Assembly: GCA_001822065.1 (NCBI GenBank)
Contig: MHPJ01000015.1
Coordinates: 7,186-71,185 of the forward strand
Origin: Candidatus Staskawiczbacteria bacterium RIFOXYB1_FULL_37_44
GTDB lineage: Bacteria; Patescibacteriota; Minisyncoccia; Minisyncoccales; Staskawiczbacteraceae
Direction of reading: 5' to 3'
DNA: 64,000 bases
The notes under the pieces are model-generated. The model ran no database searches and was not told the origin of the DNA. It was given only the letters and a program-made list of their open reading frames with translations. The translations under genes and the position numbers were made by a program. Below, in pieces: positions 6,241-52,658 of this stretch; positions within the stretch are counted from its first letter, which is position 1; each line of letters begins with the position of its first letter.

Positions 6241-6303
6241 CCAGCCCAAAAAGGCTGTTTTTTCTTTGACTACTTTATGCTAAAATTATATGATTAGTTA
6301 ATA
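6241..6303 (+). promoter_or_regulatory. Conserved RM-cassette leader, copy 1 (hairpin/T-run, then TTGACT-17 nt-TATGAT promoter)
   Basis: ccagcccaaaaaggctgttttttctttgactactttatgctaaaattatatgattagttaata. Matches 8811-8873 with about six differences. Confidence 0.55.
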
Positions 6304-8445: not shown

Positions 8446-8468
8446 AAATTAATTGAGAAATAAAAATT

Positions 8469-8771
8469 ATGGATTATTTAACAATAATACTCATTTTTAT
8501 AATTACGGGGTTGGGGGTGTGGATTTGGCAACTTTTGAGAGTCAGGGTAAGGCCGGGAATTATTGAAAAACAGGCAGAGAAGATGGCGACAAATAGGCAG
8601 GAAGTTTTAAAATTTTTGGAAAATGTGGAAAGAATTAGAAATAATGATGTTGAAAAATTACTGAAAGTTTCCAACGCCACAGCAGAAAGATATTTGGCCG
8701 AACTGGAAAAAGAAGGAGTTTTAAAGCAGGTGGGAGATATTGGGCAGGGAGTGTATTATGTAAAAATATAG
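8469..8771 (+). CDS. Membrane-anchored winged-helix DNA-binding protein
   Basis: 100-aa ORF. N-terminal TM helix, then a DeoR/wHTH-like VEKLLKVSNATAERYLAELEKEGVLKQVG segment. Confidence 0.5.
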   Translation: MDYLTIILIFIITGLGVWIWQLLRVRVRPGIIEKQAEKMATNRQEVLKFLENVERIRNNDVEKLLKVSNATAERYLAELEKEGVLKQVGDIGQGVYYVKI

Positions 8772-8810
8772 CAAAGCATAAATAGCTCACCGCGACGAGT
8801 TATTCTGACC

Positions 8811-8873
8811 CCAGCCCCAAAGGCTGTTTTTGTTTTGACTAGTTTATGTTAAAATTATATGATTAGTTAATAA
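8811..8873 (+). promoter_or_regulatory. Conserved RM-cassette leader, copy 2
   Basis: ccagccccaaaggctgtttttgttttgactagtttatgttaaaattatatgattagttaata. Same hairpin plus TTGACT-17-TATGAT layout as 6241-6303. Confidence 0.55.
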
Positions 8874-8877
8874 AAAT

Positions 8878-10164: not shown

Positions 10165-10861
10165 AATATCAAAAAAGTTTTCGGCAGAATTTGGTAAAAA
10201 AGAAAAAGTTCTTAACTACGCCTGTCAAACCTATCAACTATCCCGGCCCAATAAAGTTGGGGCAGTGATGTCCTTAATAAGAGAATGCCAGCCGAAAACA
10301 ATAAACGAATGGGAAAAGTGGTATTTTGAAAAAGCATTTACTGAAGGCAAAAGTCCTATAAAAATAACACCAGAAATTTTGAATGAATTAGGCGAGCGTT
10401 TGTATGAAAAAATTACTGAAGTTGTAATCCCCGAATGGCAGGCAGCATTTAACGAACTATCTCTGGAGGATTGTAAAGATTATGTTTATAATTTAACGGT
10501 AAGACGCACTTACGACGGTTTTATACGCGAGAAGTCGGTCGTGAACGATGGGTTGTCGAAAATTTTTCTAGAGGTAAAATTTATTGAAAGCGAAAACGAC
10601 CTTGATCATGCTGGAGATATAGACTATCTGGGTTTTGTGGATAAATTTGCTTTTGGGATACAAATAAAACCAATTACAGCAAGGGCAAATTTTGGGAATT
10701 ATTCTGTATCTGAAAGGATGAAAAATAATTTTATTGATTTCGAAAATAAATATAAAGGTAAGGTTTTTATTATTTTCAGTTTAGATGGGGAGATAGGCAA
10801 CAAAGAAGTATTAAAAGAAATTCAAAAAGAGATAGGAAGATTAAAAAATTTTAAAACTTAA
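10154..10861 (+). CDS. Putative type II restriction endonuclease (partner of the 8878 methyltransferase)
   Basis: 235-aa ORF overlapping the methyltransferase gene stop by 11 nt. PD-(D/E)xK-like GDIDYLG...GIQIKP. Confidence 0.5.
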   Translation: MANKISKKFSAEFGKKEKVLNYACQTYQLSRPNKVGAVMSLIRECQPKTINEWEKWYFEKAFTEGKSPIKITPEILNELGERLYEKITEVVIPEWQAAFNELSLEDCKDYVYNLTVRRTYDGFIREKSVVNDGLSKIFLEVKFIESENDLDHAGDIDYLGFVDKFAFGIQIKPITARANFGNYSVSERMKNNFIDFENKYKGKVFIIFSLDGEIGNKEVLKEIQKEIGRLKNFKT

Positions 10862-15106: not shown

Positions 15107-15459
15107 CGCGCTGTGGAGGAGTAGTACCTCGGCAGTCTCATACTGAAGCCCCGTGTAATTGGGGCGGATGCGTGACCCTATGCGGTAACGCGTAGTGGAA
15201 AATTCCTTAAATTGCTGGAAAATCATTAAGTTTTTCTCGCTACAGCATAATCTGAAAAGATAAGTGCGAATGCGTAAAAAGCAGAAAAAATTTGACAATC
15301 AGCATCCAAACCTACAAAATTTTGTGGGGAGGTTCAGAGACTATAATAGGAATCGCCATTCTAATAGGAATTAGAAGGGCGAATGGTATAGTCCATTCCT
15401 TTTAGAAATAAAAGGTATAAAAGAAGCTGCAGGCCCCCGTGCAATTCGGGGCAGCGCAA
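15107..15459 (+). tRNA. Initiator-type tRNA(CAU) split by a group I intron (exons 15107-15141 and 15424-15459)
   Basis: Joined exons fold as a 71-nt cloverleaf with anticodon loop CUCAUAA. C1xA72 mismatch, G2:C71, C3:G70 and A11:U24 match bacterial initiator hallmarks. D-loop AGUAGUA and T-loop UGCAAUU are atypical. Confidence 0.8.
15142..15423 (+). ncRNA. Group I intron (self-splicing ribozyme core)
   Basis: P-like aaattgctggaaaa (15209-15222), Q-like aatcagcatcc (15297-15307), R gttcagagactataa (15332-15346) and S aatggtatagtcc (15382-15394). The 5' exon ends in U and the intron ends in G (15423). Confidence 0.8.
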
Positions 15460-15519
15460 CATATTGCAATTGTCTTGGACTGACGGTATAATAAAATAAA
15501 TATTATATTCGTTAGTCCA

Positions 15520-16218
15520 ATGGCAAACATAATAGAAAAAAATAAAGCCTTGAAATTAAGGCTTGAAGGAAAAAGCATAAGTGAAATTGCGGAAAAATTG
15601 AATGCTCCGAAAAGCACGATTGGTGTTTGGTGCAGAAATATAAAATTAGGGAAAAAACAGATTGAAAGACTGGAAAAAAGACAAATTTCAGGAAGCTATA
15701 AAGGCAGGATGAAATTTTTAGAAAAAATTAGAAGCGAGAGATTATTGCAAACAAAAAAATTAAAGCAGGAAGGACTAAACGATATTAAAAATATTACAAA
15801 GAGAGATTTGTTTGTATCGGGAATAGCAATGTACTTGAGCGAAGGAGCGACATCTGAAAGCAGTGAAGAAGTAAGTTTTACAAATTCAGATTTCCGAACG
15901 ATTATTTTTATGAAGAAATGGTTTATGGAGATTTGCGGAGTATTGGCAGATAAATTTGTAATTCAAATTAGAATCAATGAGGCGCATAAGAATAAAATAA
16001 AAAATACGGAAAATTATTGGTCAAAAATAACTGGTGTTCCATTGAGCCAGTTTACGAAAACTATTTTAATAAAAAGTAAATCAAAAAAAGTTTATCCAAA
16101 AAATAATATTTATTATGGAACGATTAGATTGAAGGTGAGACAGGGTACTCAGTTGAGAAGAAAAATAAACGGATGGGTTGAAGGGTTGTTAAAAAATATA
16201 AACAACATGTCGGGGTAG
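15520..16218 (+). CDS. Free-standing HTH plus LAGLIDADG-like homing endonuclease
   Basis: 232-aa ORF. N-terminal resolvase-type HTH (GKSISEIAEKLNAPKSTIGVW). LAGLIDADG_3-like FVSGIAMYLSEGA...VSFTNSDFRTIIFMKKWF...ENYWSKITGVP. Own TTGCAA-17-TATAAT promoter at 15463-15491. The stop codon lies inside the next tRNA. Confidence 0.55.
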   Translation: MANIIEKNKALKLRLEGKSISEIAEKLNAPKSTIGVWCRNIKLGKKQIERLEKRQISGSYKGRMKFLEKIRSERLLQTKKLKQEGLNDIKNITKRDLFVSGIAMYLSEGATSESSEEVSFTNSDFRTIIFMKKWFMEICGVLADKFVIQIRINEAHKNKIKNTENYWSKITGVPLSQFTKTILIKSKSKKVYPKNNIYYGTIRLKVRQGTQLRRKINGWVEGLLKNINNMSG

Positions 16219-16300: not shown

Positions 16301-16379
16301 GCGGGCATAGTCCAGCCTGGTTCAAGACGCCTCCCTGTCACGGAGGAGATCGGGGGTTCAAATCCCCCTGCCCGCGCCA
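16301..16379 (+). tRNA. tRNA-Asp(GUC), CCA encoded
   Basis: Acceptor gcgggca/tgcccgc, anticodon stem-loop cctcc-ctGTCac-ggagg, canonical T-arm ggggg-ttcaaat-ccccc, discriminator g, then cca (16377-16379). Confidence 0.9.
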
Positions 16380-17984
16380 CTGTGAACGAACAGAGTCTAA
16401 AAGCTCTGTTTTGTTCGTAAAATGGCCTGTTTTTGTTGGTTCTAACCTTAAATAAGCCCGTTCCAATGCGGGATAGTTATTTATGATTGGTTGAAACCAC
16501 TCATTTGGTTCAATTACCAGTTTTCCCTCTTGGATAACTGGCCTTTGGCCTAAGGTCATCAGTATTTCCTTTTTCAGTTCTAACCCTCCTTGCTCAAACC
16601 TTATTCTGGCGTAAGTTGCGAAAGTAAAGGTCTTTTCTGTGAGTTCCAGCCATCTTTCTGCTCGGCTCTCGGTTTCATTCACTTTTTGTCTAAGTTGGGC
16701 AATTTTAGCTTTTAAGTTATTTTTTTCTTTAAGAAAAGTTTCGTCATCAATCAAAAGGCGATACCTCATTTTGGTTAATTCATCTAATTCGGTTTGCGCT
16801 TGGGCTAATGCTTTCTGTTGCGTTTCATAAATTTTGCTCCTGTCCTCAATTTCCGTATCATTCTTTTCGTTTAAGTCCTCTAATGCCCAATTTAGAAATT
16901 CTGGGAGTATGGTGTATTTACCAAGCTCATTATCAATTTGCTCCTCTAAATTTTGTTTGGTTAAAACTTTTTTTTGCGAACACTTAATATCTTTACTTCT
17001 TCTGGTGCAATAATAATATGTGAAGGTTTTTATTTTGCCAGTGCCTTTTATAAGTTTTTCTTTTTCAATTGCAGTAAAGAAACATCCGCACTCTGAACAG
17101 CGGAGAGAACCAGTAAAAGCAAAGTGATGTTTTCGTTGTCTTGGTTTTCCTTTTCTCCCAAGAAGCATCTGAACTCTGTCATATTCGTCAAGAGTTATCA
17201 TTTTTGGGTGTTTGCCTTCGTATTGCATCCTTACTTTTCCATATTCAAAAAAACCAGTATAAAAAATGTTGTTAAACATTTTATAAATTCCCGTTCTTGA
17301 TAACGGAACTCCACCAGTCCTTTTTGTCTTTCTTGTTCTATACCCCCATTGATTATTTGCGATGTCTAAAATTTGTGGCGGGGTATAGTTGCCCGTAAGC
17401 ATTAAGTCCCACATTTTTCTAACTAACGGAAATCTTTCGGGGTCTATTGAAATGTCATTATCGCCCCTATCTTTAATTTTGCTGTTTAGATAACCTTGTG
17501 GCGCAGTAGTCGGCAACCATCCTTTTGCCAGTTTGCTATCAATGCCCCTTTTAACGCTTTTTCTCAAATCCAAAATAAACTGGTTGGCCGAGCCAGTTTC
17601 AACATTAAAGAGAATTACATTGTCGTCTGGGAGATATTGCCTGTCTATCGTCTGAATTGATTTAATAAGTCCTTGTTGCAACATCCAGCTTAATTTACCG
17701 CTATCAATAGGGTTTCGGGATAGTCTATTTATCTGCCAACATAGAATACCGTTTGCTTCACCGTTTTCAATTCGCCTGAGCATTTCGTCAAAAAGTGGAC
17801 GGTTGTTTGGTTTTTTGGCAGACTTTGACTCTGTATATGTTTTTTTGATGGTTATATTCAAATCTCCCGCAAGTTGCCTTAACCTGTTAAGCTGGTCATC
17901 AATTGATTGAATTTGTCTATCCTCGCTTTCAGAAGATTTACGAGCATAGAGAAAATATGTAAGTTTATTGTTTTCTTTTTCCAT
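16338..17984 (-). CDS. Large serine recombinase/integrase no. 1
   Basis: 548-aa ORF. N-terminal YARKSSESEDRQ..SIDDQ resolvase catalytic domain, a Cys4 zinc-ribbon recombinase domain (CSECG...YYYCTRR) and a coiled-coil region. The last 14 codons and the stop read through the antisense strand of tRNA-Asp. Confidence 0.9.
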   Translation of the reverse strand: MEKENNKLTYFLYARKSSESEDRQIQSIDDQLNRLRQLAGDLNITIKKTYTESKSAKKPNNRPLFDEMLRRIENGEANGILCWQINRLSRNPIDSGKLSWMLQQGLIKSIQTIDRQYLPDDNVILFNVETGSANQFILDLRKSVKRGIDSKLAKGWLPTTAPQGYLNSKIKDRGDNDISIDPERFPLVRKMWDLMLTGNYTPPQILDIANNQWGYRTRKTKRTGGVPLSRTGIYKMFNNIFYTGFFEYGKVRMQYEGKHPKMITLDEYDRVQMLLGRKGKPRQRKHHFAFTGSLRCSECGCFFTAIEKEKLIKGTGKIKTFTYYYCTRRSKDIKCSQKKVLTKQNLEEQIDNELGKYTILPEFLNWALEDLNEKNDTEIEDRSKIYETQQKALAQAQTELDELTKMRYRLLIDDETFLKEKNNLKAKIAQLRQKVNETESRAERWLELTEKTFTFATYARIRFEQGGLELKKEILMTLGQRPVIQEGKLVIEPNEWFQPIINNYPALERAYLRLEPTKTGHFTNKTELLDSVRSQWRGQGDLNPRSPP

Positions 17985-21088: not shown

Positions 21089-21221
21089 ATTTAGGCCACT
21101 TTTTCAATTATGGCTTTAAGTTGCGGACTTTATCTTTTTTTAATTTTAAGATAGTATAAATATAACAATTTAATAATGAGCCTAACCCTTATGAGTTCTG
21201 AAATTTATAAGGTATGGCACA

Positions 21222-21359
21222 AAAACGGTTCAGGCCATTAAGCTCTCAGTCAGAGCACCTGAACCATCATATTCCGAAAGGTATATGGGTGTCGCAAGAC
21301 ATCGCTGGCTGGGAGCTTTATGTTTCCAGCGAGCGAAGGCATAAATAAAACGGTTCAGG
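21222..21359 (+). promoter_or_regulatory. Structured leader of the type III mod gene with three mutually complementary 8-13 nt elements
   Basis: aaaacggttcagg at 21222-21234 and again at 21347-21359 (abutting the ATG at 21361). Complementary cctgaacc at 21258-21265. Nested hairpins gctct-cagtc-agagc, a GCAA-loop stem, and cgctgg...ccagcg. Confidence 0.4.
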
Positions 21360-21360
21360 T

Positions 21361-23028
21361 ATGCCAAATGAAAAAGAACTTCTTGAAGAAGTTAAATTTC
21401 TTAAAGAAGAAATAAAGAAAATAAAACCTAAAAAATACGGCCTTCTTTGGGAAACCAAAGACGAGGATGTTGTTTTGCAGTGCAAGGAAGAATTACCAGT
21501 TTTGATAGAAGATGACAAGAAGGAAATAAAAACAGATAAAAGCAAGCCCGTAAACATTCTAATTGAAGGAGATAATTATCACGCTCTTTCTGTTTTGAAT
21601 TACACTCATCAAGGAAAAATTGATGTCGTTTACATTGACCCGCCATATAATACTGGCGCAAAAGACTGGAAATATAATAATCATTTTGTTGATAATCTTG
21701 ATACCTATCGGCACAGTAAATGGATTTCAATGATGAACAGCCGTATTCGTTTAGCAAAGAAATTATTACAAAATACAGGGATTTTTATCTGTGCCGTAGA
21801 CCATTATGAACTTTTTAATTTAGGCCTGCTTTGTGATGAAATTTTTGGAGAAGAAAACAGATTGGGAGTAATTACAGTTGTCCATAAGCCAGAAGGAAGA
21901 CAGTTTGCAAATTTTTTTAGTCCTTCAAACGAGTTTATGCTGGTATATGCTAAAAATAAAAATTTAGCTAAATTTCAGGATGTTGTTTTAAGCGAGGGAA
22001 AATTAGAAGAATTTAACGAAGAAGATGAAAAAGGAAAATTCAAACTGCAAAATTTTATAAGGTTGACTGATGGAAAATATAGTTTAAGAAAAAATAAGCC
22101 CGCAGGATTTTATCCAATTTATGTAAGTAGTGATTTGATGAAATTTAGTCTTGAGAAAAAGGCCAACTATGAGGAGGCCTTACCAATAACAAATAAGGGG
22201 ATAGAGAGAGTATGGAAAACTTTTGGAGATACTTTTATGGAAAAGGTTGAAGATGGAGTTATTGTCGCAAAAAGAGAAAATGGAAAGTTAGTTTTATATG
22301 AAAAATTAAGGCCGAGCCAAGTATTGACGACTCATTGGATTGATAAAAAATATCACGGCTATCACTATGGCACGAAACTTTTAGAAGAAATTCTTGGAGA
22401 AAAAGTATTTGATTTTCCAAAATCGCTATATTTACTAATTGATATACTTAAAATTACGACCAACGAAAAAGCCATTATATTAGATTTTTTTGCTGGTTCA
22501 GGCACTACTGGACACGCAGTTTTGGAATTGAATAAAGCCGATGGTGGTAATCGGCAGGTAATTTTATGCACGAATAATGAAAACAAAATCGCAGAAAATG
22601 TTTGCTATCCAAGAATGAAGAAAGTTATTGATGGTTATTCATCTAACAAAGGGTTGGGCGGAAACTTAAAATACTACAAAACTGATTTCGTTGATGCTGA
22701 ACCAACAGACATAAATAAGAAAAAACTTGTTGATAAGTCAACAGAAATGTTGTGTCTTAAAGATGACTGTTTTAATGAAATAAAAAGAACTAAAACTTAT
22801 AGCATTTTTACCAATAATTGGGGCAAAAATTTAGGCATTATCTACGATGATGCTGGCATAGCTCCCTTCAAAAAAGAGGTGGAAAAGATAAACAAAAAAT
22901 TTATTGTTTATGTTTTTTCTTTAGATGAAAGCGCAAGAGAAGAAGAATTTGAAGATATAAAAAAGTTGGTTGAATTAAAGCCAATCCCAGCAGTTATTCT
23001 TAATGTGTATAAGCGTATATTCAAATGA
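21361..23028 (+). CDS. mod: Type III restriction-modification methyltransferase (Mod)
   Basis: 555-aa ORF. Motif IV VVYIDPPYNTG before motif I LDFFAGSGTTGHAV (beta-class) with a central variable region. Overlaps the downstream res gene by 4 nt. Confidence 0.9.
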   Translation: MPNEKELLEEVKFLKEEIKKIKPKKYGLLWETKDEDVVLQCKEELPVLIEDDKKEIKTDKSKPVNILIEGDNYHALSVLNYTHQGKIDVVYIDPPYNTGAKDWKYNNHFVDNLDTYRHSKWISMMNSRIRLAKKLLQNTGIFICAVDHYELFNLGLLCDEIFGEENRLGVITVVHKPEGRQFANFFSPSNEFMLVYAKNKNLAKFQDVVLSEGKLEEFNEEDEKGKFKLQNFIRLTDGKYSLRKNKPAGFYPIYVSSDLMKFSLEKKANYEEALPITNKGIERVWKTFGDTFMEKVEDGVIVAKRENGKLVLYEKLRPSQVLTTHWIDKKYHGYHYGTKLLEEILGEKVFDFPKSLYLLIDILKITTNEKAIILDFFAGSGTTGHAVLELNKADGGNRQVILCTNNENKIAENVCYPRMKKVIDGYSSNKGLGGNLKYYKTDFVDAEPTDINKKKLVDKSTEMLCLKDDCFNEIKRTKTYSIFTNNWGKNLGIIYDDAGIAPFKKEVEKINKKFIVYVFSLDESAREEEFEDIKKLVELKPIPAVILNVYKRIFK

Positions 23029-25211
23029 TTGAGCTAAAAGATTACCAAAAAAAAGCAGTAGAAAATCTGCATAGAAAAATAGAAAACTCTTTAAGGTCTT
23101 CTGATAATGAAGTAGTTATTTTTCAAGCCCCAACTGGTTCTGGTAAAACAGTGATGGTTTCTGAATTACTTAAGGAGCTTATTTCGGGCAGAGAAGACGA
23201 CAAAAAGTTTTCTTTTGTTTGGGTTTCCGTAAGGATGTTGCACGAACAAAGCAAAGAGAAATTAGAAGTTTATTATGAAGACAACAGGTCTTTGAAATGC
23301 TCATATTTTGAAGATTTGGAAGACAAAAAAATAGGCGAGAACGAAATCCTATTTATAAATTGGCACAGCATAAACAAAAAAGACATCAACCTTTTTGTAA
23401 GAGATAATGAGCAGGATAATAACTTAAATTCAATAATAAAAAATACAAAGGATGATAATAGAACCATTATTTTAATTATTGACGAAAGTCATCACACAGC
23501 AAACTCGGAAAAATCAAAAGAACTTATTGAAATAATTAGTCCAAAAATAACATTAGAGGTTTCTGCTACCCCGCATTTAACCGAAAACATAGCCGAGATA
23601 GAAAAAGTCCGCTTGTTTGATGTTAAGGCAGAAGAAATGATTAAATCTGAAATTTCTGTAAACCCAGAATTTCTTGATGCTAAAATCGGCACTAAAAGCT
23701 CGGACGAGGTTGTTATTGAGGAGGCCTTAAAAAAAAGAGAGGAGCTGGCCAAAATGTATAAAAAAGAAGGTTCAAAAATAAATCCTTTGATGCTTATTCA
23801 GCTACCAGATAATAAAGCTGGCCTGATTAGTAAGCAGGAAGGAGTCATCAAAATTTTAGGAAAAAAGAGAATAACAGAAAAAAACGGTAAGCTGGCTATC
23901 TGGTTGTCAGAAGAGAAATCAGACACCCTGCCCGATATAGAAAAAAATAATAGCGATGTTGAAGTCTTAATTTTCAAACAGGCCATTGCTCTTGGCTGGG
24001 ATTGCCCCAGAGCTTCAATTTTAGTAATTTTTAGGGAGTCTAAAAGTTTTACCTTTACAATACAGACTATTGGTAGAATAATGAGGATGCCCGAATTAAA
24101 ATACTATTCAAAAGAACCAGACCTGAATAATGGTTTCGTTTTTACTAATCTTCCGAGCATTGAGATAACCGAAGAATATGCTAAAGACTACATCACTATT
24201 TATGAGGCAAAAAGAGATAACAAAATTTATAAAGATATTTCTTTGCCATCCATCTATTTGAAAAGGCAAAGAGAAAGAACTCGTTTGTCGGGAGAATTTC
24301 TAAAACTTTTCTTGAAGGTTGCAGTAGAAAACGATTTGGCGCAGAAGGTTAATCTTAAACCAGTTAAGATAATAAGCCCAATAATAGCTGATGGCAAAAT
24401 TGTTGATATTGATAAGTTTGGAGAAATAGAACATAAGGGAACGATAAGCGTTGCGCTTAATGAAAAAGAACTACAAGAAAGGTTTGATAAATTCATTTTT
24501 CAAAACTGCACCCCCTATGCACCAGTTGATTCCAGCGACAGAATGAAAACTGCTTTATATCAATTTTTTAACCAAAAATTTAAGTTTGAAAAATACGACC
24601 CGAAAGTCCAAAGAATTGTTTTGGGGAAAGAAAATGTTCAGCTATTTGTAGATGCCATCAACTTGGCCAAAGAAAGATACAAAAAGGAAGTCATTGAAAA
24701 ATTAAGCGAGAAGAGGGAACTGCAAGAAACTCCCAGTTGGGAAGTGCCGATGTTTATTACCTATAACAGTAGATATAAGGCCGAGATACAGCCCCTTTCT
24801 GCCGTAAAACCCTTCTACACGGCCAAACCAAGCGAACCAGAGCGATTATTTATAGAGATGCTCAATGGTTCAAAGGAGATTAAATGGTGGTATAAAAATG
24901 GCGATACCGAGATAAAATACTTCGCCGTTTTGAGGGAAGATGATTTTGCTTTCTACCCAGACTTTATATTTCAGATGAAAGACGGCACTATTTGGATACT
25001 TGATACTAAGTCTGGCAGGACGGCTGAAACAAGTGATGCTAAGCCGAGAGCCGAAGCCTTACAAAAGTATATCAAGACTCAAAACAAAAAAGGTAAAAAT
25101 CTTATGGGAGGCATTGCGGTTTATGTGAATGGAACTTGGAGATACAACGATAACGAAAAATATGAATACGACCCGAACGACCTATCAAGCTGGAAAGTGC
25201 TTGGATTGTAA
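23025..25211 (+). CDS. res: Type III restriction enzyme Res subunit (SF2 helicase plus PD-(D/E)xK nuclease)
   Basis: 728-aa ORF. Walker A QAPTGSGKT, motif II IIDESHH, C-terminal nuclease-like FYPDFIFQMKDGTIWILDTKSG. Confidence 0.9.
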   Translation: MIELKDYQKKAVENLHRKIENSLRSSDNEVVIFQAPTGSGKTVMVSELLKELISGREDDKKFSFVWVSVRMLHEQSKEKLEVYYEDNRSLKCSYFEDLEDKKIGENEILFINWHSINKKDINLFVRDNEQDNNLNSIIKNTKDDNRTIILIIDESHHTANSEKSKELIEIISPKITLEVSATPHLTENIAEIEKVRLFDVKAEEMIKSEISVNPEFLDAKIGTKSSDEVVIEEALKKREELAKMYKKEGSKINPLMLIQLPDNKAGLISKQEGVIKILGKKRITEKNGKLAIWLSEEKSDTLPDIEKNNSDVEVLIFKQAIALGWDCPRASILVIFRESKSFTFTIQTIGRIMRMPELKYYSKEPDLNNGFVFTNLPSIEITEEYAKDYITIYEAKRDNKIYKDISLPSIYLKRQRERTRLSGEFLKLFLKVAVENDLAQKVNLKPVKIISPIIADGKIVDIDKFGEIEHKGTISVALNEKELQERFDKFIFQNCTPYAPVDSSDRMKTALYQFFNQKFKFEKYDPKVQRIVLGKENVQLFVDAINLAKERYKKEVIEKLSEKRELQETPSWEVPMFITYNSRYKAEIQPLSAVKPFYTAKPSEPERLFIEMLNGSKEIKWWYKNGDTEIKYFAVLREDDFAFYPDFIFQMKDGTIWILDTKSGRTAETSDAKPRAEALQKYIKTQNKKGKNLMGGIAVYVNGTWRYNDNEKYEYDPNDLSSWKVLGL

Positions 25212-26669: not shown

Positions 26670-28214
26670 CTAATAGTGTTCACGAGGTTGCGCAATAATA
26701 AAACTTTTTTCTTTTTTCCCGACGAAATCGTGGGCGGCCGAAATGGCCGCCCAGTGTTTTTGTGAGGGGAAATCCGTTCCGCTCGGCGCGCTGCGGCGCA
26801 CCTCGCGATTTGCCAAAACGAGGTTCAATCCGAAAATTTCTTTAGTAGCAGCCTTTTTATTCAAAAGGCTGCTTTCGTTTGCGGTTTTTGCTATGGTTTG
26901 TGCATAATTTATCCAATTTTGCATAGGTTCAACCCAGCCGAATCGCTTTTGTTCAAGAGTGTTGATTTTTTCTTCCAGCGATTTCTTTTCGCTTACCAGC
27001 TCTGATTTTTTGGCAAGATAAATTTCTCGTTCAACAACTTGGTCAAGGTACGAATCCAGAAGTCGCTGAATTTTAACAGAAATGTTTTCGATTTTTTCTT
27101 GCGCCTCTTGAACAAAAGCGGTGAAAGATTGGGCGGTTTCTATTTTGTCTTTTTCAAGTTTTTTATTTAACTCTTCGGCCCAATCTTTTTTCAAAGAAAA
27201 TTTTTGAAGCAAAGAGGAAATTTGTTTGTCTAAAATTTCTTGCCGCACAGGCGGTTCAGCGCATTTTATTGTTTTTGATTTTCTTGAACATCGGTAATAA
27301 ACATAATGGTGGACATTTCCATTTTTTTGTTTTTTGATTCTTTTTTCCGCAGTTATCATCATTCCGCAGGTTCCGCACCTCAATAATCCGCAAAACGCTT
27401 GCGGTTGGTTTTTACTGCTTTTTCTTATTTTTCCTCTTTGCTTTAAAATTTCTTGAACTTTATCAAAAATTTTCTTTGAAACTATCGGCTGGTGTTTGCC
27501 TTCGTATATTTCTTTGGTATAGCGGAACAATCCAACATAGAACGGATTTTGAAGAATAAACGAAACCCTATCTTTGTGGATTCGCTTTCCGGTTTTTGAT
27601 AATATGCCGTTTTGCGCCAAAAAGTTGGCGATATCTTCCAATCTACTTTCGTTTTTAGCGTAAAGCTCAAATGCTTTGCGGATAATTATACTTCGTTTTT
27701 TGTGAACCATAATTGATTTTGTCCGCACATCATTTATGTAGCCAATCGGCGCAAGCCCTGGATATTCTCCGCGTTTGGCTTTTTGGCGTTGTCCTCGTTT
27801 CGTGTTTTCGGAAAGCGAATCAATGTAGTATTTGCTTTGTCCGAAAGCGATGTTTAGCATAAATTTTCCCTGTGGCGTTGGTTCAAACCAAAATGTTGAA
27901 AATTTTAACGCTTGCAAATGCCCGCAGTCTACAAGATAAATTATTTTTCCGCCGTCAACAGAATTGCGCGCCAGCCTGTCAGGATGCCATGCCAAAATTC
28001 CGTTAGCTTCGCCTTTTTCAATTCGTTTTATCATTTCGTTGAAAATTGGTCTGCCCGGAATTTTGGCAGATTGTTTTTCAATTAACTCATCAACAATTTC
28101 TAAATTTTCCTTTTCGGCAAAATCGCGCAATTCAGCGATTTGGTCTTCAATAGACCTGACTTGTCGTTCTTCCTCATCTGTGGACTTGCGGGCATATAAA
28201 AAGAATTTTTGCAT
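26670..28214 (-). CDS. Large serine recombinase no. 2
   Basis: Start set to MQKFFLYARKSTDEEERQVRSIEDQ (ATG at 28214). Resolvase catalytic domain, zinc ribbon CGTCG...YYRCSRK, coiled coil. The last ~45 codons lie in repeat copy A. Confidence 0.9.
   Translation of the reverse strand: MQKFFLYARKSTDEEERQVRSIEDQIAELRDFAEKENLEIVDELIEKQSAKIPGRPIFNEMIKRIEKGEANGILAWHPDRLARNSVDGGKIIYLVDCGHLQALKFSTFWFEPTPQGKFMLNIAFGQSKYYIDSLSENTKRGQRQKAKRGEYPGLAPIGYINDVRTKSIMVHKKRSIIIRKAFELYAKNESRLEDIANFLAQNGILSKTGKRIHKDRVSFILQNPFYVGLFRYTKEIYEGKHQPIVSKKIFDKVQEILKQRGKIRKSSKNQPQAFCGLLRCGTCGMMITAEKRIKKQKNGNVHHYVYYRCSRKSKTIKCAEPPVRQEILDKQISSLLQKFSLKKDWAEELNKKLEKDKIETAQSFTAFVQEAQEKIENISVKIQRLLDSYLDQVVEREIYLAKKSELVSEKKSLEEKINTLEQKRFGWVEPMQNWINYAQTIAKTANESSLLNKKAATKEIFGLNLVLANREVRRSAPSGTDFPSQKHWAAISAAHDFVGKKEKSFIIAQPREHY
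26698..26832. repeat. Recombinase-3'-end module, copy A (inside the recombinase no. 2 CDS)
   Basis: ~135 bp, GC-rich, with hairpin gggcggcc-gaaat-ggccgccc and a GC-rich arm pair that is imperfect in copy A (ggtgcgc/gcgcgcc). Direct orientation relative to 30652-30783; inverted relative to 28395-28530. Confidence 0.85.
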
Positions 28215-28394
28215 AAATTTGTTTTGTTTAATTTTAATCAACTTAAATGGCCGCCCCGGTGCACTCAATCCAAGTTGCCTTGAACTGTCCGAGACGGCCA
28301 TTGAAAAAGACAACTTGTTCGACTGAGTGCAATTTTATTATATCACAGCCAGAAGAAAAGCAAAAATTCTTTTTATCGGGCAAAGCAAATACTA

Positions 28395-41058: not shown

Positions 41059-41316
41059 TTAAGAAAGGTGTTTTGAGACCAATTTTGTCATTTCAAACAT
41101 ATTTACTGTGGCCTTTCCGCCGAAAACTGATTTTAGTTTATCATCGGCGTTTATGTTTCTTTTGTTTTTTGGATCCTGAAGCCCGTTCTTTTTTATGTAA
41201 GCCCAAAGTTTTTTTACGACTTCAGACCTCGGCATCGGACCCTTTCCTACAACTGCTTCTAAATCTGCTGTGAGCTTTAGCGGCTTCATAAAAGCCGAGT
41301 TTGCTTTTCCTGGCAT
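41059..41316 (-). CDS. SWIB/MDM2-domain protein
   Basis: 85-aa ORF. LEAVVGKGPMPRSEVVKKLWAYIKKNGLQDPKNKRNINADDKLKSVFG matches the SWIB pattern. Confidence 0.85.
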   Translation of the reverse strand: MPGKANSAFMKPLKLTADLEAVVGKGPMPRSEVVKKLWAYIKKNGLQDPKNKRNINADDKLKSVFGGKATVNMFEMTKLVSKHLS

Positions 41317-42822: not shown

Positions 42823-43965
42823 ATGAGAAATAATATAATTATAAATGACGAAAAAGAGCAGGAATTAATTTTAGATCTGCAAAAACGTACAGACATTAAG
42901 GCAGAAAGAATTAAACGGCTTTTATCTTTGCCCGACCTCACAAAGAAAGAAAATTCTCCTGTAAAAATTATAAATGATAAAATATTGGAGCTACCAATAT
43001 GGGCTGATTTTGATATAGTTGATATTCCTAAAATTGTAACTGTTCAAGACGATTTCGATCTTTTAAATACGCCAAAGGACCATCCAAGCAGAAGAGAATC
43101 AGACACTTATTATTTGGATAAAACTCATATTTTGAGAACCCAGATGACCGTGATGTGGCCTTATTATTTTAGAGATAAAGAAGTTTTGGAGAGATTAAAA
43201 AAAGATGGTGAAGTCGGATCGCTGTCACCGGGAATTGTTTGGCGCAAAGACGAAATTGACCGTAAACATTTTCCGGCTTTTCATCAAACAGATTTTTTGT
43301 ATGTGTGCAGGAAAGATAAAAGAATTATTACGCTTAAAGAGCTGCAAGATGTTCAAGCAGATGCGGTAAGGACAATCTTTGGCGACATTGAATTTAGATT
43401 TTTAGTTGATACTTTTCCTTTTACCGACCCATCAACTCAAGTTGAAATAAATTGGGGAGGAAACTGGATTGAGATAACTGGAGCTGGGCTTGTGCATCCT
43501 AATTGTTTGAAAAATTTTGGATTGGATCCAGAAATTTATAACGGTTATGCCGGTACATTTGGATTGGACAGAGTTGCAATGGTAAAAATGGGAATTTCTG
43601 ATATCAGAATTTTTTGGTCTGAAGACCAGAGAATTACGAGTCAGTTTAAAGATATAAATTCAAAATACAAAGAAGTCAGCAAATATCCTGAAACTTCGCG
43701 CGATATATCTTTTATAATAGACAAGAATATAAATTTAAATAATTATTACGAAATTGTAAGAGATTTTGCGGAAAATTTAATTGAAGAAGTAAAACTGGTT
43801 GACAGTTATGAAGATGACGCAAAGTTTGGCAATAATAAAAAAAGTTATACATTCAGAATTATTTACCGCAGTCCGGAAAAAACTTTAACCAATGAAGAAA
43901 TTAATGTTATTCAAGAAAAAATCCGCATCAAAACAGCGCAAGACCTAAACGCAATTTTGCGATAA
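42823..43965 (+). CDS. pheS: Single-chain phenylalanyl-tRNA synthetase, mitochondrial (FARS2)-like architecture
   Basis: Class II core (DHPSRRESDTYYL, FPFTDPS, GAG..HPNCL, GLDRVAMVKMGISDIRIFW) fused to a C-terminal FDX-ACB-type anticodon-binding domain (SKYPETSRDISFII...YTFRIIYRSPEKTLTNEE). Confidence 0.8.
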   Translation: MRNNIIINDEKEQELILDLQKRTDIKAERIKRLLSLPDLTKKENSPVKIINDKILELPIWADFDIVDIPKIVTVQDDFDLLNTPKDHPSRRESDTYYLDKTHILRTQMTVMWPYYFRDKEVLERLKKDGEVGSLSPGIVWRKDEIDRKHFPAFHQTDFLYVCRKDKRIITLKELQDVQADAVRTIFGDIEFRFLVDTFPFTDPSTQVEINWGGNWIEITGAGLVHPNCLKNFGLDPEIYNGYAGTFGLDRVAMVKMGISDIRIFWSEDQRITSQFKDINSKYKEVSKYPETSRDISFIIDKNINLNNYYEIVRDFAENLIEEVKLVDSYEDDAKFGNNKKSYTFRIIYRSPEKTLTNEEINVIQEKIRIKTAQDLNAILR

Positions 43966-44824: not shown

Positions 44825-46909
44825 ATGATGAAATTAAATATAAAAGAAAAAGATGAGGAAAATATTGAGGCAGAGCCCGTGAAGGCCGAGTTTGCAATGA
44901 CTAAGGGGGCGAAAGAGCCTGCAAAAAAAGAAGAAAGAAAAACTGAAGTGAAAAAAGAAGAACCTAAAAAAGAATCTCCAAAAATAGAAGCGAAAAAAGT
45001 TAGAAAAGAAGGGGAGTACACTGCCAAAGACATTTATGTTTTAAAAGGATTAGAGCCCGTAAGATTACGTCCCGGAATGTACATTGGCTCTACTGGAATT
45101 GACGGCCTGCACCATTTAATTTGGGAAGTTGTGGACAATTGTTTAGACGAAGCAATGGCAGGATATGCCAAAAATATTGAAGTAACTTTACTGCCGAATA
45201 ACAGGGTAAAAGTTTCTGATGACGGCAGAGGAATTCCGGTTGAAAAACATCCCGACACAGGAAAATCAACTTTGGAAACCGTTCTGACAACTTTGCACGC
45301 GGGAGGAAAATTTGGCGGAGAAGCTTATAAGGTTTCCGGCGGATTACATGGCGTGGGAATTTCGGTTGTATGCGCTTTGTCCACCTATATGCTGGCTGAA
45401 GTCAAAAGAGACGGGGGAGTGTACCAGCAGGAATATTTCAGAGGAGCGCCAAAAACATCAGTCAAAAAAATTGGAGACAGCAAAAAAACCGGAACAACAC
45501 AGACTTTTGACGCAGACCCGCAAATTTTTTCAGAAATAAAATACGACCCAAAACGGATTTTGAACCATTTACGCCAGCAAGCATATCTGACAAAAGGGGT
45601 AAAAATAGCTTTTAAAGACGAAAGAATAAAAGGCGAAGAATCTTCCTACACATTCTATTTTGAAGGCGGAGTCGGCTCGTATGTAAAATATTTGGTTTTA
45701 GGAAATCATCCAAGGCATTCAAATATTTTTTCAATTTCAACGGAAAAAGACAATATTGCTGTTGAAGCAGCTTTTCAGTATACGCAGGAAATGGAGTGCA
45801 CCGAAGAATCTTTCGCAAATAATATTTATACAGTTGAAGGCGGAACGCATATTTCCGGATTTAGAACTGCGCTGACAAGATCATTAAATGACTATGCAAG
45901 ACGCGAAGGATTTTTAAAAGAAAAAGATGAAAATTTTTCAGGAGACGATGTTAGGGAAGGTTTGACCGCGGTTGTTTCTGTAAAAATTAGAACTCCGCAA
46001 TTTGAAGGCCAGACAAAAGCAAAACTGGGAAATCCCGAAGCAAAACCAGCCGTAGAAGCAGCCACGGCTGAAGGTTTGTCTGATTATTTGGAAAGAAATC
46101 CATCTGACGCAAAGTCTATAATTGAAAATTGTTTACTGGCAACCAAAGCCAGATTGGCTGCAAAGGCAGCAAGGCAAACAGTTTTGAGGAAGGGCGCCCT
46201 GGAGGGTTTGGCGTTGCCCGGAAAATTAGCAGACTGTCTTTCCAGAAAACCAGAAGAATCTGAAATTTATATTGTTGAGGGAGATTCCGCCGGCGGTTCA
46301 TCAAAACAAGCCAGAGACAGGCGGTTTCAGGCAATTTTGCCTTTGCGCGGGAAAATTTTAAATGTAGAGCGCGCCAGGCTGGACAAAATGTTGGCTTCAA
46401 AAGAAATTAAAGCTTTAATCATTGCCATGGGCACGGGCATTGGCGAAGATTTTGACATTGAAAAATTGCGCTATCACCGTATTGTAATTATGACCGATGC
46501 CGATGTTGACGGAGCTCATATTCGCACCTTGTTGCTGACATTTTTTTACAGGCATTTTAAACCTGTTGTTGACGCTGGCCACATTTACATTGCACAGCCG
46601 CCTTTGTATAAAATTTCTTTTGGAAAAAATGCGCAGTACGCGTATTCAGACGGCCAGCGCGATAAGATTGTAAAAGAAATGGGAAAATCTACCGCTTCAA
46701 TCCAGCGATATAAAGGCTTGGGAGAAATGAATCCCGAACAGCTTTGGGAAACAACAATGAATCCTGAAAACCGCACGTTGCTGCAAGTGGCCGTTGAGGA
46801 GGCTCACGAAGCAGATAAAACTTTAGACATTTTAATGGGGGAGGAAGTTGAACCTCGCAAAAAATTCATTCAAACCCACGCCAAAGCAGCCAGAAACATA
46901 GACATTTAA
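44825..46909 (+). CDS. gyrB: DNA gyrase subunit B
   Basis: LEPVRLRPGMYIGST, GGLHGVG, Toprim EIYIVEGDSAGGS and PLRGKILNVE motifs. Lys/Glu-rich N-terminal extension of about 65 aa. Confidence 0.95.
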   Translation: MMKLNIKEKDEENIEAEPVKAEFAMTKGAKEPAKKEERKTEVKKEEPKKESPKIEAKKVRKEGEYTAKDIYVLKGLEPVRLRPGMYIGSTGIDGLHHLIWEVVDNCLDEAMAGYAKNIEVTLLPNNRVKVSDDGRGIPVEKHPDTGKSTLETVLTTLHAGGKFGGEAYKVSGGLHGVGISVVCALSTYMLAEVKRDGGVYQQEYFRGAPKTSVKKIGDSKKTGTTQTFDADPQIFSEIKYDPKRILNHLRQQAYLTKGVKIAFKDERIKGEESSYTFYFEGGVGSYVKYLVLGNHPRHSNIFSISTEKDNIAVEAAFQYTQEMECTEESFANNIYTVEGGTHISGFRTALTRSLNDYARREGFLKEKDENFSGDDVREGLTAVVSVKIRTPQFEGQTKAKLGNPEAKPAVEAATAEGLSDYLERNPSDAKSIIENCLLATKARLAAKAARQTVLRKGALEGLALPGKLADCLSRKPEESEIYIVEGDSAGGSSKQARDRRFQAILPLRGKILNVERARLDKMLASKEIKALIIAMGTGIGEDFDIEKLRYHRIVIMTDADVDGAHIRTLLLTFFYRHFKPVVDAGHIYIAQPPLYKISFGKNAQYAYSDGQRDKIVKEMGKSTASIQRYKGLGEMNPEQLWETTMNPENRTLLQVAVEEAHEADKTLDILMGEEVEPRKKFIQTHAKAARNIDI

Positions 46910-49341: not shown

Positions 49342-50490
49342 ATGGATAAAAATGACGAGCAAATTTTAGTGGTGCCGAGCGAAATTATTTTTGCTAAGGA
49401 AAAATGGCAAGGATTAAAAACAGACAATCTTGATTATTATTTGGATTTGATAAAAAATAATTGCCAGTTCAAAAGAAGGGGTGACATGGAAAATGATCCG
49501 TCTTTCCAACAGATAATTCCATATATGCTGTTTAGTTTTGGCGATAAATTTTTTGCTTATAATTATTTAAAAAACGCGGGAGAACAGCGTTTGGTAAACA
49601 CAGACTACCAGCTCGGTGTGGGTGGCCATATAAACAAAGACGACATAAATGGAGACACAGACGTTTTGGAAACCGGCATGGCGCGAGAGTGGGAAGAAGA
49701 AGTGGATTTTAAAGGGAATTTTTTGCAAAAAAGATTGGTTGGCATAATAAATGACGACTCGCGCGAAGTGGAAAAAGTGCATTTGGGTTTGGTTTATCAT
49801 TTTGTTGGAGACAGCCCAGAAATTCTTGTTAAAGAAACAGATAAAATGAAGGGCAAACTTTTTGACCTAAAAGATATTTCAGAAAATATCAGCCACAGCC
49901 CGTGGATGCAAATAGTCTACAAAAATTATTTATTTAAGTTTTTAAAAACTAAAAAAATTATCGGCGTAACCGGAGAAATTGGGGCGGGCAAAGATACTTT
50001 TTGCCAGTATGTAAAAGAAAACTTTCCAAATGTTTCTATCTTTAGATTTTCTGATGCGTTGACAGAAGTTTTAAAAATATTTTTTGATTCGGTAAAAAGG
50101 GATGACCAGCAATGGATCAGCACTCAATTAAGAGAAAGATTTGGTCAGGATATTTTGGTAAAAGCCTTGATTAAAAAAATAAACAATATAAGCGAAGGAG
50201 TAGTTATTTTAAATGGAGTTCGTAGGCCCGGAGATTTTACGGCTTTAAAACAAATTGCCGGAAAGCTTGTTTATGTAGGAGCTGACGTAAGAAAGAGATG
50301 GGAAAGAGTTGTGTTAAGAAAAGAAAAAGCAGATGACGATGTGCCTTTCGAAAAATTTTTAGAGCTGAGCGGAGCCGAAGCCGAGCAGCAAATTTCCGCA
50401 ATTGGCGGACAAGCTGATTTTAGAATAGAAAACAACGGCTCAAAAGAAGAATTTTTTTCACAAATAAAAAAAGTAATAGATTTAATATAA
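49342..50490 (+). CDS. Fusion: Nudix-like hydrolase domain plus P-loop nucleotide kinase domain
   Basis: N-terminal half has a Nudix-box-like GGHINKDD..ETGMAREWEEEVDF. C-terminal half has Walker A GVTGEIGAGKDT, resembling dNMP/dephospho-CoA kinases. Confidence 0.6.
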   Translation: MDKNDEQILVVPSEIIFAKEKWQGLKTDNLDYYLDLIKNNCQFKRRGDMENDPSFQQIIPYMLFSFGDKFFAYNYLKNAGEQRLVNTDYQLGVGGHINKDDINGDTDVLETGMAREWEEEVDFKGNFLQKRLVGIINDDSREVEKVHLGLVYHFVGDSPEILVKETDKMKGKLFDLKDISENISHSPWMQIVYKNYLFKFLKTKKIIGVTGEIGAGKDTFCQYVKENFPNVSIFRFSDALTEVLKIFFDSVKRDDQQWISTQLRERFGQDILVKALIKKINNISEGVVILNGVRRPGDFTALKQIAGKLVYVGADVRKRWERVVLRKEKADDDVPFEKFLELSGAEAEQQISAIGGQADFRIENNGSKEEFFSQIKKVIDLI

Positions 50491-52658
50491 TGGAAAAAGG
50501 GAAATTTTTTGTGTTTGAGGGCATAGACGGATGTGGCAAAGCAACTCAAACAAGATTATTGACGGAGTATTTTGGGCAAGAGGGTTTTGACGTGGAAAAA
50601 ATTGATTTTCCCCAGCACGGAGAGCGGTCTTCTGCTATGGTTGACGATTATTTGACTGGAAAATATGGAGAATCAAAATCTGTGCCGGAAAAGGTTGCCT
50701 CAATTTTCTACGCAACAGACAGATATGATGCCAGCTTCAAAATTAAAAAATGGTTAGATGAAGGAAAAATTGTGGTTTCGGACAGATATTTGGTTTCAAA
50801 CATCGGGCACCAAGGTGGAAAGGTTGTAAATGACGCAGAAAAATGGAAAAATTATGTAAATTGGCTGTATGATTTGGAATACGGAATTTTCGGAATTCCA
50901 AAACCAGACTATACTTTTATTTTGAAAACTTCGGCGGAGTTTTCAATGAAATTGGCAAATAAAATAACTGACCCAGAAAAAAAACAGACAAGAATAAACT
51001 ATTTGGGCGATGATAAAAAACAGGATATACACGAAAAAGACGGAAGCCATTTGGAAAACGCCCTAAAGTCTTATTTAATTGCGGCGAAAGAATTTCCAAA
51101 CGATTTTGCAGTTGTGGAATGCTTGGAAAATGGAGAAATGCTGCCCGCTGAAATTATAAATAAAAAAATAATAAATATAATTGAAAATAAGAAAAAAATT
51201 ATGCCAGCAGAAAGACGAATTTATGCGTTGCCGAATAATTTAATGCCCGAAGTAAAAGCGGTAACTTTTGCCAAGTGTTCAAGGTCGGCGGAACCTTTTG
51301 ATAAAATTGCGCAGGAACTTACCGATGAAAAGTCAGCCGAATTCCATGAAAAGTGGGTGGTGGGTTTTGGACATTCGTCAATTGCCGAGCATGCAGTAAT
51401 TTCTTTGGCAGTTGAAAATGTTTCAAACATTGCCACAAAAGTTATTGAAGATTCGAGGCTGGCTTCTTTTACAGAAAAATCTTCGCGCTACCAAATTTTC
51501 AACAAAGACAAATTGTATATGCCAGAAGGAATAATGAATTCTGATTTAAAAGATATATATTTGAATGCTGTAAATTTATTAATGGATGCTTATGAAGAAA
51601 TGACAGCGCCTATGATGGATTTTGTAAAACAAAAATATCCAAAACCCGATGATCAAGATGAAAAGCTTTACAATATGGTTTCAAAAGCCAGAGCCTGCGA
51701 TAATTTGAGATATTTATTGCCTTCTGCTGTTTTAACAAATCTGGGAATGACAATTAACACAAGAGAACTCGAACATTTAATTGCAAAATTATTATCGCAT
51801 CCACTAAAAGAAATGCAGGATATTGGAAAAGAAATGAAAGAAAAAGCAATGGAAGCGGTTCCTACTTTATTAAAATTTGCAAACAAAAATAATTATATTG
51901 CTGAAACAAAAAAGCAGTTGTCAAATATTGCAAAATGGGAATTGGGTAGGGAAGCGGGAAATAACCAAGCAGTAACAATTGTGAATTATGATAAAGACGC
52001 AACAGATAAATTAATTGCAGGAATTTTATATCCGTATTCCGATTTGTCGTATGAAGAAATTGCGAGGAAAGTTAAGAATTTGCCAAACGATAAAAAAGAA
52101 AAAATAATTGATGAAACGTTGAGCCGCAGAGAAAAGTTTGACCAGCCTTTGCGCGAGCTTGAGCACATCTATTATACCTTTGATATTTTGCTTGATTACG
52201 GAGCATTTCGCGATGTTCAGCGCCACAGAATGTGCACGCAATCAAACCAGCCCGTAACTGTAGTGCATGGATACGATTTACCGCCCGAAATTCGCGAAGC
52301 GGGTTTTGAAGACAAATTTAGGGCAGTGGTGGAAAAAGCAGCCGATGCTTTTCAAAAAATTTATGAGAAATTTCCAGATGAAGCGCAATATGTTGTTCCA
52401 ATGTGTTTTAGAAAACGAGTTTTAATCACCTGGAATTTGCGCGAATTGCATCACTTTATTTCCTTACGGTCTGGCAAGAAAGGCCATGCATCTTACCGCA
52501 GAATCGCGCAAGAGTGCTGGAAAAAATTAAATGAAATCCAGCCTTTGCTGGCAAAATATATCCGCTGCGATATGGATGAAATGTCTGTTTCATGGGCAGC
52601 CTCGTTGGAAAACAAAGATTTTTACTACAACCCCTACGCCGCCCGCGTAAAATCCTAG
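50490..52658 (+). CDS. Fusion: thymidylate kinase plus tandem (pseudo-dimeric) flavin-dependent thymidylate synthase ThyX
   Basis: Tmk: FFVFEGIDGCGKATQ, DRY. ThyX-like domain 1: GFGHSSIAEH...SRLASFTEKSSRY (RHR replaced). ThyX-like domain 2: FRDVQRHRMCTQS...NLRELHHFISLRSG..GH. Confidence 0.8.
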   Translation: MEKGKFFVFEGIDGCGKATQTRLLTEYFGQEGFDVEKIDFPQHGERSSAMVDDYLTGKYGESKSVPEKVASIFYATDRYDASFKIKKWLDEGKIVVSDRYLVSNIGHQGGKVVNDAEKWKNYVNWLYDLEYGIFGIPKPDYTFILKTSAEFSMKLANKITDPEKKQTRINYLGDDKKQDIHEKDGSHLENALKSYLIAAKEFPNDFAVVECLENGEMLPAEIINKKIINIIENKKKIMPAERRIYALPNNLMPEVKAVTFAKCSRSAEPFDKIAQELTDEKSAEFHEKWVVGFGHSSIAEHAVISLAVENVSNIATKVIEDSRLASFTEKSSRYQIFNKDKLYMPEGIMNSDLKDIYLNAVNLLMDAYEEMTAPMMDFVKQKYPKPDDQDEKLYNMVSKARACDNLRYLLPSAVLTNLGMTINTRELEHLIAKLLSHPLKEMQDIGKEMKEKAMEAVPTLLKFANKNNYIAETKKQLSNIAKWELGREAGNNQAVTIVNYDKDATDKLIAGILYPYSDLSYEEIARKVKNLPNDKKEKIIDETLSRREKFDQPLRELEHIYYTFDILLDYGAFRDVQRHRMCTQSNQPVTVVHGYDLPPEIREAGFEDKFRAVVEKAADAFQKIYEKFPDEAQYVVPMCFRKRVLITWNLRELHHFISLRSGKKGHASYRRIAQECWKKLNEIQPLLAKYIRCDMDEMSVSWAASLENKDFYYNPYAARVKS

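Follow-up and report, generated by a model that had tools for sequence, protein, structure and literature searches.

The stretch of DNA analysed here, 64,000 nucleotides of contig MHPJ01000015.1 of the bacterium RIFOXYB1_FULL_37_44 (Candidatus Staskawiczbacteria; hereafter the window), contains on its forward strand, at 42823..43965, a gene for a phenylalanyl-tRNA synthetase (PheRS)-like protein in which a PheS-type catalytic core and a C-terminal ferredoxin-fold anticodon-binding (FDX-ACB) domain are joined in a single chain. To judge from sequence comparisons, the product is probably the working PheRS of this small-genome groundwater organism, a reduced, editing-free housekeeping enzyme that serves a large candidate phyla radiation (CPR) branch. 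According to a review (PMC3275996), the heterotetrameric organization of the prokaryotic PheRS is maintained in every species known; the mitochondrial enzyme, composed of the alpha catalytic module and domain B8, is the only known monomeric synthetase with a class II catalytic module; and PheRS editing resides in domains B3/B4. No description of a single-chain PheRS in bacteria or CPR, of the 'PheS-related mystery ligase' SrmL, or of the loss of pheT in Patescibacteria was found in the literature searched.

The gene begins with ATG, encodes 380 amino acids and ends with the stop codon at 43963-43965. These are exactly the position and length proposed in an initial annotation made from the sequence alone, and the open reading frame (ORF) described there is real; all of the motif strings quoted in it (DHPSRRESDTYYL, FPFTDPSTQVEI, GAGLVHP, FGLDRVAMVKMGISDIRIFW, SKYPETSRDISFIIDKN and KKSYTFRIIYRSPEKTLTNEEIN) are present in the translation. 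Pfam recognizes two domains and no further ones, namely tRNA-synt_2d (PF01409, aa 39-275, 175 bits, E 2.3e-51) and FDX-ACB (PF03147, aa 286-380, 89 bits, E 2.7e-25). Both matches are far beyond chance, and they bear out the annotated joining of a PheS-type core to a C-terminal FDX-ACB domain. The class II catalytic core (42937..43647) is 35% identical to Escherichia coli PheS and contains motif 2 (GIVWRKDEIDRKHFPAFHQTD), the Phe-pocket loop FPFTDPS, GAGLVHP and motif 3 (AGTFGLDRVAM). In the FDX-ACB region (43678..43962), positions 675-798 of the pheT_bact model (TIGR00472) align with aa 256-380, and the PheT chains of the PDB align with aa 284-380 only, the part that corresponds to domain B8. 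By these alignments the C-terminal domain is a homolog of B8, a domain of the PheRS beta subunit.

The core is preceded by a family-specific segment (aa 1-38, 42823..42936), seen in an alignment with E. coli PheS and in an AlphaFold model. About 55 N-terminal residues of E. coli PheS are left unmatched in this alignment, and the window protein has no match to Phe_tRNA-synt_N (PF02912), the N-terminal coiled coil being absent. Across the family the stretch DIKAERIKRLLxLPDLTKK is kept, and helices are predicted in the model at aa 10-21 and 25-34. The segment with these two predicted helices takes the place of the long coiled coil of canonical PheS. No B3/B4 editing domain, B5 or B6/B7 was found in the 380-aa chain. 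Compared with canonical (alpha-beta)2 PheRS, the window protein thus shares all class II motifs and a core 35-40% identical to PheS, but it is without the PheS N-terminal domain and has B8 fused to alpha.

In a sequence search of the PDB, human mitochondrial PheRS came first (E ~1e-48), followed by bacterial PheS chains (E ~3e-39), which match the core only. The model (mean predicted local distance difference test score, pLDDT, 84.6) gave the same picture in a fold search: its best match was 3tup_A, human mitochondrial PheRS in the tRNA-bound open state, over the whole chain (E 2.9e-30, template modelling score 0.63), and bacterial PheS chains again matched the core only. The close line-up with human FARS2 claimed in the initial annotation agrees with this result (best PDB relative, E 1e-48), and the FARS2 strings given there, skypavindisfw and hcyrityrhmertlsqre, stand opposite the quoted stretches in the alignment.

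The catalytic and Phe-pocket residues are intact, as in canonical and mitochondrial PheRS. The window protein has DHPSR, the motif 2 Arg, FHQxD, F198-P-F200-T201, GAGLVHP (GxGxVH), A243 and the motif 3 Arg, and the catalytic and pocket motifs are conserved in 81 of the 81 family sequences extracted. T201 and A243 align with T251 and A294 of E. coli PheS, the two residues that determine the size of its pocket. Like mitochondrial PheRS (human FARS2 and yeast MSF1; TIGR00469; PDB 3CMQ and 3TUP), the window protein combines a PheS module and a B8-type FDX-ACB domain in one chain, lacks the coiled coil, B1-B7 and the editing domain, and has the same type of Phe-pocket residues, including Thr at the E. 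coli T251 position. It differs from the mitochondrial enzyme in that its gene lies in a bacterial host in housekeeping synteny, in an overall identity of only ~28%, in a conserved N-terminal segment of its own and an insertion that follows motif 1, and in that some relatives pair the single chain with a separately encoded B1/B2 protein.

When one genome per GTDB species was scanned, at least 388 species-level genomes proved to contain relatives; the flank and synteny counts given below refer to the best 80 of these. All 80 belong to Patescibacteria (Staskawicz-, Nealson- and Moranbacteria, Paceibacterota and some automatically labelled bins). More than 120 database clusters are 72-100% identical to the window protein; all of them are ~380 aa long with both domains, and the named ones are all CPR. 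Hypothetical protein A2528_00230, from the Parcubacteria-type CPR/Patescibacteria metagenome-assembled genome (MAG) Candidatus Staskawiczbacteria RIFOXYD2_FULL_37, matches the window protein at 100% identity, and the identical gene was placed on contig MHPV01000016.1 of GCA_001820515.1. A more distant relative, P0128 (38% identity; L014:9463-10833, 456 aa), adjoins an F-type ATP synthase operon, and its gene has in-frame TGA codons where Gly is conserved, which points to a CPR lineage with genetic code 25 (Gracilibacteria/Absconditabacteria-type). The single-chain form is characteristic of Parcubacteria-type CPR bacteria and is also present in this code 25 lineage. A 414-aa homolog (L009:10001-11245), 45% identical, was found in an Oligoflexia MAG (GCA_019694465.1) among metabolic neighbours that are not CPR-like, and may represent either a transfer out of CPR or mis-binning.

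Downstream of the PheRS gene in the window are a DUF218-domain gene (PF02698, 43977..44822, +), which in this lineage lies between the PheRS gene and gyrB, and then gyrB itself (44825..46909, +), secE, nusG and rplK, as recognized by their Pfam domains. As a neighbour, gyrB is conserved in the family: it lies no more than 4 kb downstream of the PheRS gene in 57 of the 80 related loci (gyrB-secE-nusG-rplK), and in ~10 other loci the PheRS gene adjoins tyrS and/or leuS. Between the window and locus L011, PheRS is 79% identical, NusG 80%, GyrB 70% and GatB 56%; since this identity is on a par with that of syntenic core genes, the PheRS gene evolves like a core gene. Its GC content resembles that of the surrounding DNA. 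No T-box or other Rfam match was found near the gene, and scans for a promoter and a terminator at the gene gave results no better than those for shuffled sequence. On the upstream side, the reverse strand encodes an 85-aa SWIB/MDM2-domain protein (41059-41316) that is kept upstream of the PheRS gene in 13 of the 80 loci; this domain is best known from eukaryotic chromatin remodellers.

A tblastn search of the 80 loci with E. coli PheT gave a strong match to PheT residues 1-153, at 40-47% identity, in nine of them (L081:9561-9989 and L086:9484-9981, and also L019, L046, L060, L069, L073, L084 and L091). In each case the match is a complete ORF of 142-165 aa, here called mini-beta, which corresponds to the N-terminal B1/B2 region of PheT and has tRNA_bind (B2, PF01588) as its only domain. 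It is encoded on the same strand as the single-chain gene and directly upstream of it, the gene order being tyrS, mini-beta, PheRS and leuS. A database search with mini-beta revealed a large family of single-domain proteins of 108-207 aa, named 'beta chain' by the Joint Genome Institute (JGI), several of which share contigs with close homologs of the window protein. There was no full-length PheT among the best 120 mini-beta matches, all of which are short stand-alone proteins, and no mini-beta was found in the window or near the gyrB-type loci. These sequences suggest that the beta subunit has been dismantled in the mini-beta lineages, with B8 fused to alpha, B1/B2 free and the rest not seen. 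The term monomeric, which the initial annotation used for the enzyme, may therefore fail strictly across the family, because some relatives keep a stand-alone PheT B1/B2 fragment beside the gene.

The highest raw NCBIfam score of the window protein is for SrmL (NF051887), 243 bits against a cutoff of 300. It scores 236.8 bits for pheS_mito (TIGR00469, cutoff 258.35) and 176.2 bits for canonical pheS (TIGR00468, cutoff 237.45), so that an assignment to pheS_mito or to pheS, as the initial annotation had envisaged, reaches neither cutoff. A more distant relative, P0121, scores 264 bits for pheS_mito and lies above its cutoff. An exhaustive search of 1.84 billion representatives gave 190 proteins at E <= 1e-30. 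In a neighbour-joining tree of 206 core columns with 200 bootstrap replicates, which is limited in both method and sampling, canonical PheS is split from all single-chain forms at 100% bootstrap. The CPR family and its distant relatives form a group at 80%, the close family alone at 100% and the SrmL clade at 100%, whereas a grouping of the CPR and mitochondrial types was recovered in 0% of the 200 replicates. On average, the cores of the CPR family share 40% identity with canonical PheS, 38-39% with mitochondrial-type sequences and 33% with SrmL. The core is about equally close to canonical PheS and to the mitochondrial type, and 'mitochondrial-type' thus describes an architecture rather than a specific affinity. 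The CPR single-chain type is a distinct lineage: it forms a clade of its own, and the mitochondrial enzymes are not its sister group. Among canonical PheS sequences the one nearest to the query, P0212, comes from a Gram-negative bacterium with Mla genes in which pheT is not adjacent, and no CPR names were found among the other canonical-like PheS representatives.

The label 'mitochondrial-type' given in the initial annotation therefore stands for the architecture and for the best solved match by both sequence and fold, but not for the curated family, and the phylogeny does not support a mitochondrial affinity (0 of 200 replicates). Its suggestion that the gene bears on the origin of the mitochondrial enzyme holds indirectly, in that the alpha-B8 fusion exists outside eukaryotes and stands apart from canonical PheS, although the CPR clade is not the mitochondrial sister.

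The 'long' representatives are mitochondrial enzymes of eukaryotes (Schizosaccharomyces Msf1, Pteridium and Salpingoeca). Several proteins of 345-357 aa that pass the pheS_mito cutoff are encoded on phage-like and giant-virus-like contigs. One such compact single-chain PheRS gene (L006:10001-11047) lies on a 340,874 bp huge-phage-like contig with PhageMetallopep, PcfJ and many unannotated ORFs, and another (L013:10001-11074) on a giant-virus-like contig with Kelch repeats, PTH2, an NAD-dependent ligase and GIY-YIG. These proteins share the two-domain architecture with the CPR type, in a more compact form, but unlike it they score above the pheS_mito cutoff and group with the mitochondrial types. 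Such contigs carry closer non-eukaryotic relatives of FARS2 than the CPR type. A two-domain homolog was also found on a 635 kb uncultured phage (LR745206.1, 613875-614897; 89% of the query covered), and most of the phage-database matches are fragments of canonical pheS on records that carry a phage label. A viral origin of the CPR type was considered and rejected, because a scan of the viral contig collection gave no relatives.

The existence of the SrmL model indicates that its curators know one related bacterial single-chain family. True SrmL members, found in large-genome Actinomycetota and in CPR, score 404-526 bits for NF051887. Like the window protein, SrmL is a bacterial single chain of similar length with a PheS core and an FDX-ACB domain. 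However, the SrmL pocket is remodelled (HPYT loop, LECG and no DHPxR), a signature absent from the window protein, which has FPFT, TGAG and DHPSR, and in the tree SrmL stands as a clade apart. One Giovannonibacteria contig carries an SrmL gene (404 bits; L098:10001-11116, +), whose product is only 26% identical to the window protein, ~6.4 kb from a 380-aa window-type ortholog (L098:17551-18693, -; 44% identity, E 1e-122), and the same pair occurs in L099. The window-type gene thus accompanies SrmL there, presumably as canonical PheST does in Actinomycetota. An SrmL contig of 3 kb gave an uninformative genomic context; no SrmL-type gene turned up in either the window or the 80 flanks. In CPR, SrmL is thus a paralog separate from the window-type gene. 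The mini-beta in relatives and the co-occurrence with SrmL support a housekeeping role of the window-type gene.

We infer that the single-chain gene provides Phe-tRNA-Phe synthesis, that its product acts without a full beta subunit, and that it is the sole PheRS of the genome. Besides this gene, neither the window nor the adjoining 10 kb upstream (~74 kb of the contig in all) contains a pheS- or pheT-like ORF, which upholds the earlier observation that no pheT is adjacent. In the ~1.1 Mb of flanks of the 80 relatives there is no canonical pheS or pheT and no homolog of B3/B4, B5 or B6/B7; only mini-beta was found. In the single-copy-gene table published by the source study, each of four Staskawiczbacteria genomes of 93-99.9% completeness has exactly one 'PheRS alpha', and one is also listed for genomes of Nealson-, Moran- and Giovannonibacteria.

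Several points weigh against this reading. The search of this contig for canonical pheS and pheT covered about one-tenth of a genome of ~0.73 Mb. The single-copy-gene table is silent on which gene was counted, and two Giovannonibacteria genomes also score 1, which means that its pipeline may miss some PheS-like genes; the table was for the same reason rejected as a means of telling the window type from SrmL, as these two genomes score 1 and not the 2 that would be expected if both genes were present and counted. The window protein lies under every curated NCBIfam cutoff, and its NCBI name is hypothetical protein. Many CPR PheRS beta subunits are reported to lack B2 (PMC5370408), which implies that some CPR bacteria keep a beta subunit and that a reshuffled multi-subunit enzyme is possible. 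Finally, the identities of the gene and of its neighbours are discordant in several genomes. When loci L015-L094 were compared with the window, several Staskawicz-type genomes had GyrB 87-94% identical and PheRS only 70-73% identical, whereas in genomes with GyrB at ~70% PheRS was 79-86% identical, and the PheRS subtype of the window was also met in tyrS/leuS-type loci. This discordance suggests that the PheRS gene has been exchanged or replaced among CPR lineages, often at the same locus.

One alternative is that a canonical pheS-pheT pair exists elsewhere in the genome and that the single chain is an accessory paralog, serving as a backup, a stress isoform or a supplier of aminoacyl-tRNA. 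SrmL sets a precedent for single-chain PheS-like paralogs beside other PheRS genes, both in CPR and, presumably next to pheST, in Actinomycetota; some CPR bacteria own a beta subunit, and the inspected part of this genome is ~74 kb. We nevertheless regard this alternative as unlikely. These genomes have only ~830-850 genes, in which a redundant aminoacyl-tRNA synthetase would be unusual; the gene stands in core synteny and is conserved like nusG and gyrB, and its pocket is PheRS-like, without remodelling. 'PheRS alpha' is single-copy in the four Staskawiczbacteria genomes, the adjacent B1/B2-only PheT remnant in relatives fits a loss of the full-length beta subunit, and the ~1.1 Mb of relatives' flanks are without pheS or pheT.

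Another possibility is a rearranged multi-subunit PheRS, in which the alpha-B8 fusion needs separate pieces of beta (the B1/B2 mini-beta and perhaps also a B3-B7 protein without B2 and B8), so that the enzyme would be reshuffled and editing may persist. The mini-beta directly upstream in nine of the 80 species, as a member of a large family, is in favour of such an arrangement, and the CPR beta proteins without B2 known from the literature would be the complementary piece. However, mini-beta was found neither in the window nor in gyrB-type loci, and no flank contains homologs of B3/B4, B5 or B6/B7. Mitochondrial PheRS consists of the same two domains and is active on its own, and aminoacylation by canonical PheRS reportedly does not require B2 (Roy and Ibba 2006, as cited in PMC5370408). 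We therefore consider a rearranged enzyme rather unlikely as well.

A third alternative, that the protein has a different chemistry, ligating a substrate other than Phe to tRNA-Phe as SrmL might, or a role outside translation, seems very unlikely. It draws on the SrmL score of 243 bits, on the Asp that the whole family has where FHQxE has Glu, and on one sub-clade with FPYTVES and a motif 3 that is shorter by one residue. The SrmL cutoff of 300 bits is not reached, however, and the true SrmL, at 26% identity, co-occurs as a separate gene and has specific pocket changes that are absent from the window protein, in which the FPFTDPS loop is of the standard form and motif 3 is of full length. The Asp of FHQxD is no disqualification, because many mitochondrial-type sequences share it, eukaryotic ones included. 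A recent transfer from a eukaryote, an organelle or a virus, or an assembly contamination, is hardly credible: although the architecture is otherwise textbook mitochondrial and related genes occur on phage-like and giant-virus-like contigs, the same gene and synteny are found in many independent assemblies and hundreds of CPR species, bootstrap values for the CPR clade are 80-100% and the mitochondrial types never appear as its sister, the viral contig collection is without relatives, and the GC content is like that of the surroundings.

If the single chain is the housekeeping PheRS, its PheS-type core would bind Phe and ATP, make Phe-AMP and pass Phe to tRNA-Phe, and the fused B8-type FDX-ACB domain would read the GAA anticodon. 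By analogy with human mitochondrial PheRS, this domain may swing relative to the core upon tRNA binding. Accuracy would rest on the synthetic site alone, because there is no B3/B4 editing site in the chain, and in some lineages mini-beta probably aids tRNA binding in trans. A wider scenario, which we offer tentatively and rate somewhat below an even chance, is that the (alpha-beta)2 PheRS was replaced by an alpha-B8 chain of ~380 aa across Parcubacteria-type CPR and at least one code 25 lineage, with mini-beta aiding in some of them and without B3/B4 editing; that all of the single-chain types (CPR, SrmL, viral and mitochondrial) derive from one ancient fusion; and that the mitochondrial enzyme was taken over from a prokaryotic or viral lineage and not invented in eukaryotes.

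Other parts of the window have features of their own. At 15107-15460 a group I intron (RF00028, 69.5 bits, match 15156-15415, +) splits a tRNA gene with anticodon CAU, which ARAGORN calls tRNA-Met after in-silico removal of ~270 bases; beyond it are an ORF with a helix-turn-helix domain (15520..16218) and intact tRNA-Met and tRNA-Asp genes. Two large serine recombinases with Resolvase, Recombinase and Zn_ribbon_recom domains are encoded on the reverse strand at 16338-17984 and 26670-28313, and between them are a LOOT RNA (21179-21303), a DNA methylase (21361..23028) and a ResIII helicase (23025..25211). This recombinase-bracketed region beside tRNA genes may be an integrated mobile or defence island. 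A second restriction-modification cluster, with N6_Mtase/Eco57I, N6_N4_Mtase and RE_MjaI, is located at 6303-10861, a dense arrangement for a genome of ~0.73 Mb. On the forward strand at 50490-52658, a 722-aa ORF encodes a thymidylate kinase (PF02223) fused to ThyX (PF02511, in two stretches).

Annotation pipelines name the window protein 'hypothetical' (NCBI) or 'alpha chain' (JGI), and a 140-aa fragment 'beta chain' (JGI), so that surveys relying on such product names would miss a reduction of PheRS. Should there be no PheRS other than the single chain, the generalization that the prokaryotic enzyme is a heterotetramer would be overturned by an entire bacterial radiation. The family would then provide a natural minimal bacterial PheRS without editing, which raises the question of how mischarging with Tyr or meta-tyrosine is controlled, and its natural 'split' intermediates, an alpha-B8 fusion together with free B1/B2, would show the disassembly of a multidomain synthetase. 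The origin of the mitochondrial enzyme would also become testable, because the alpha-B8 fusion occurs in bacteria and viruses, apart from canonical PheS at full bootstrap.

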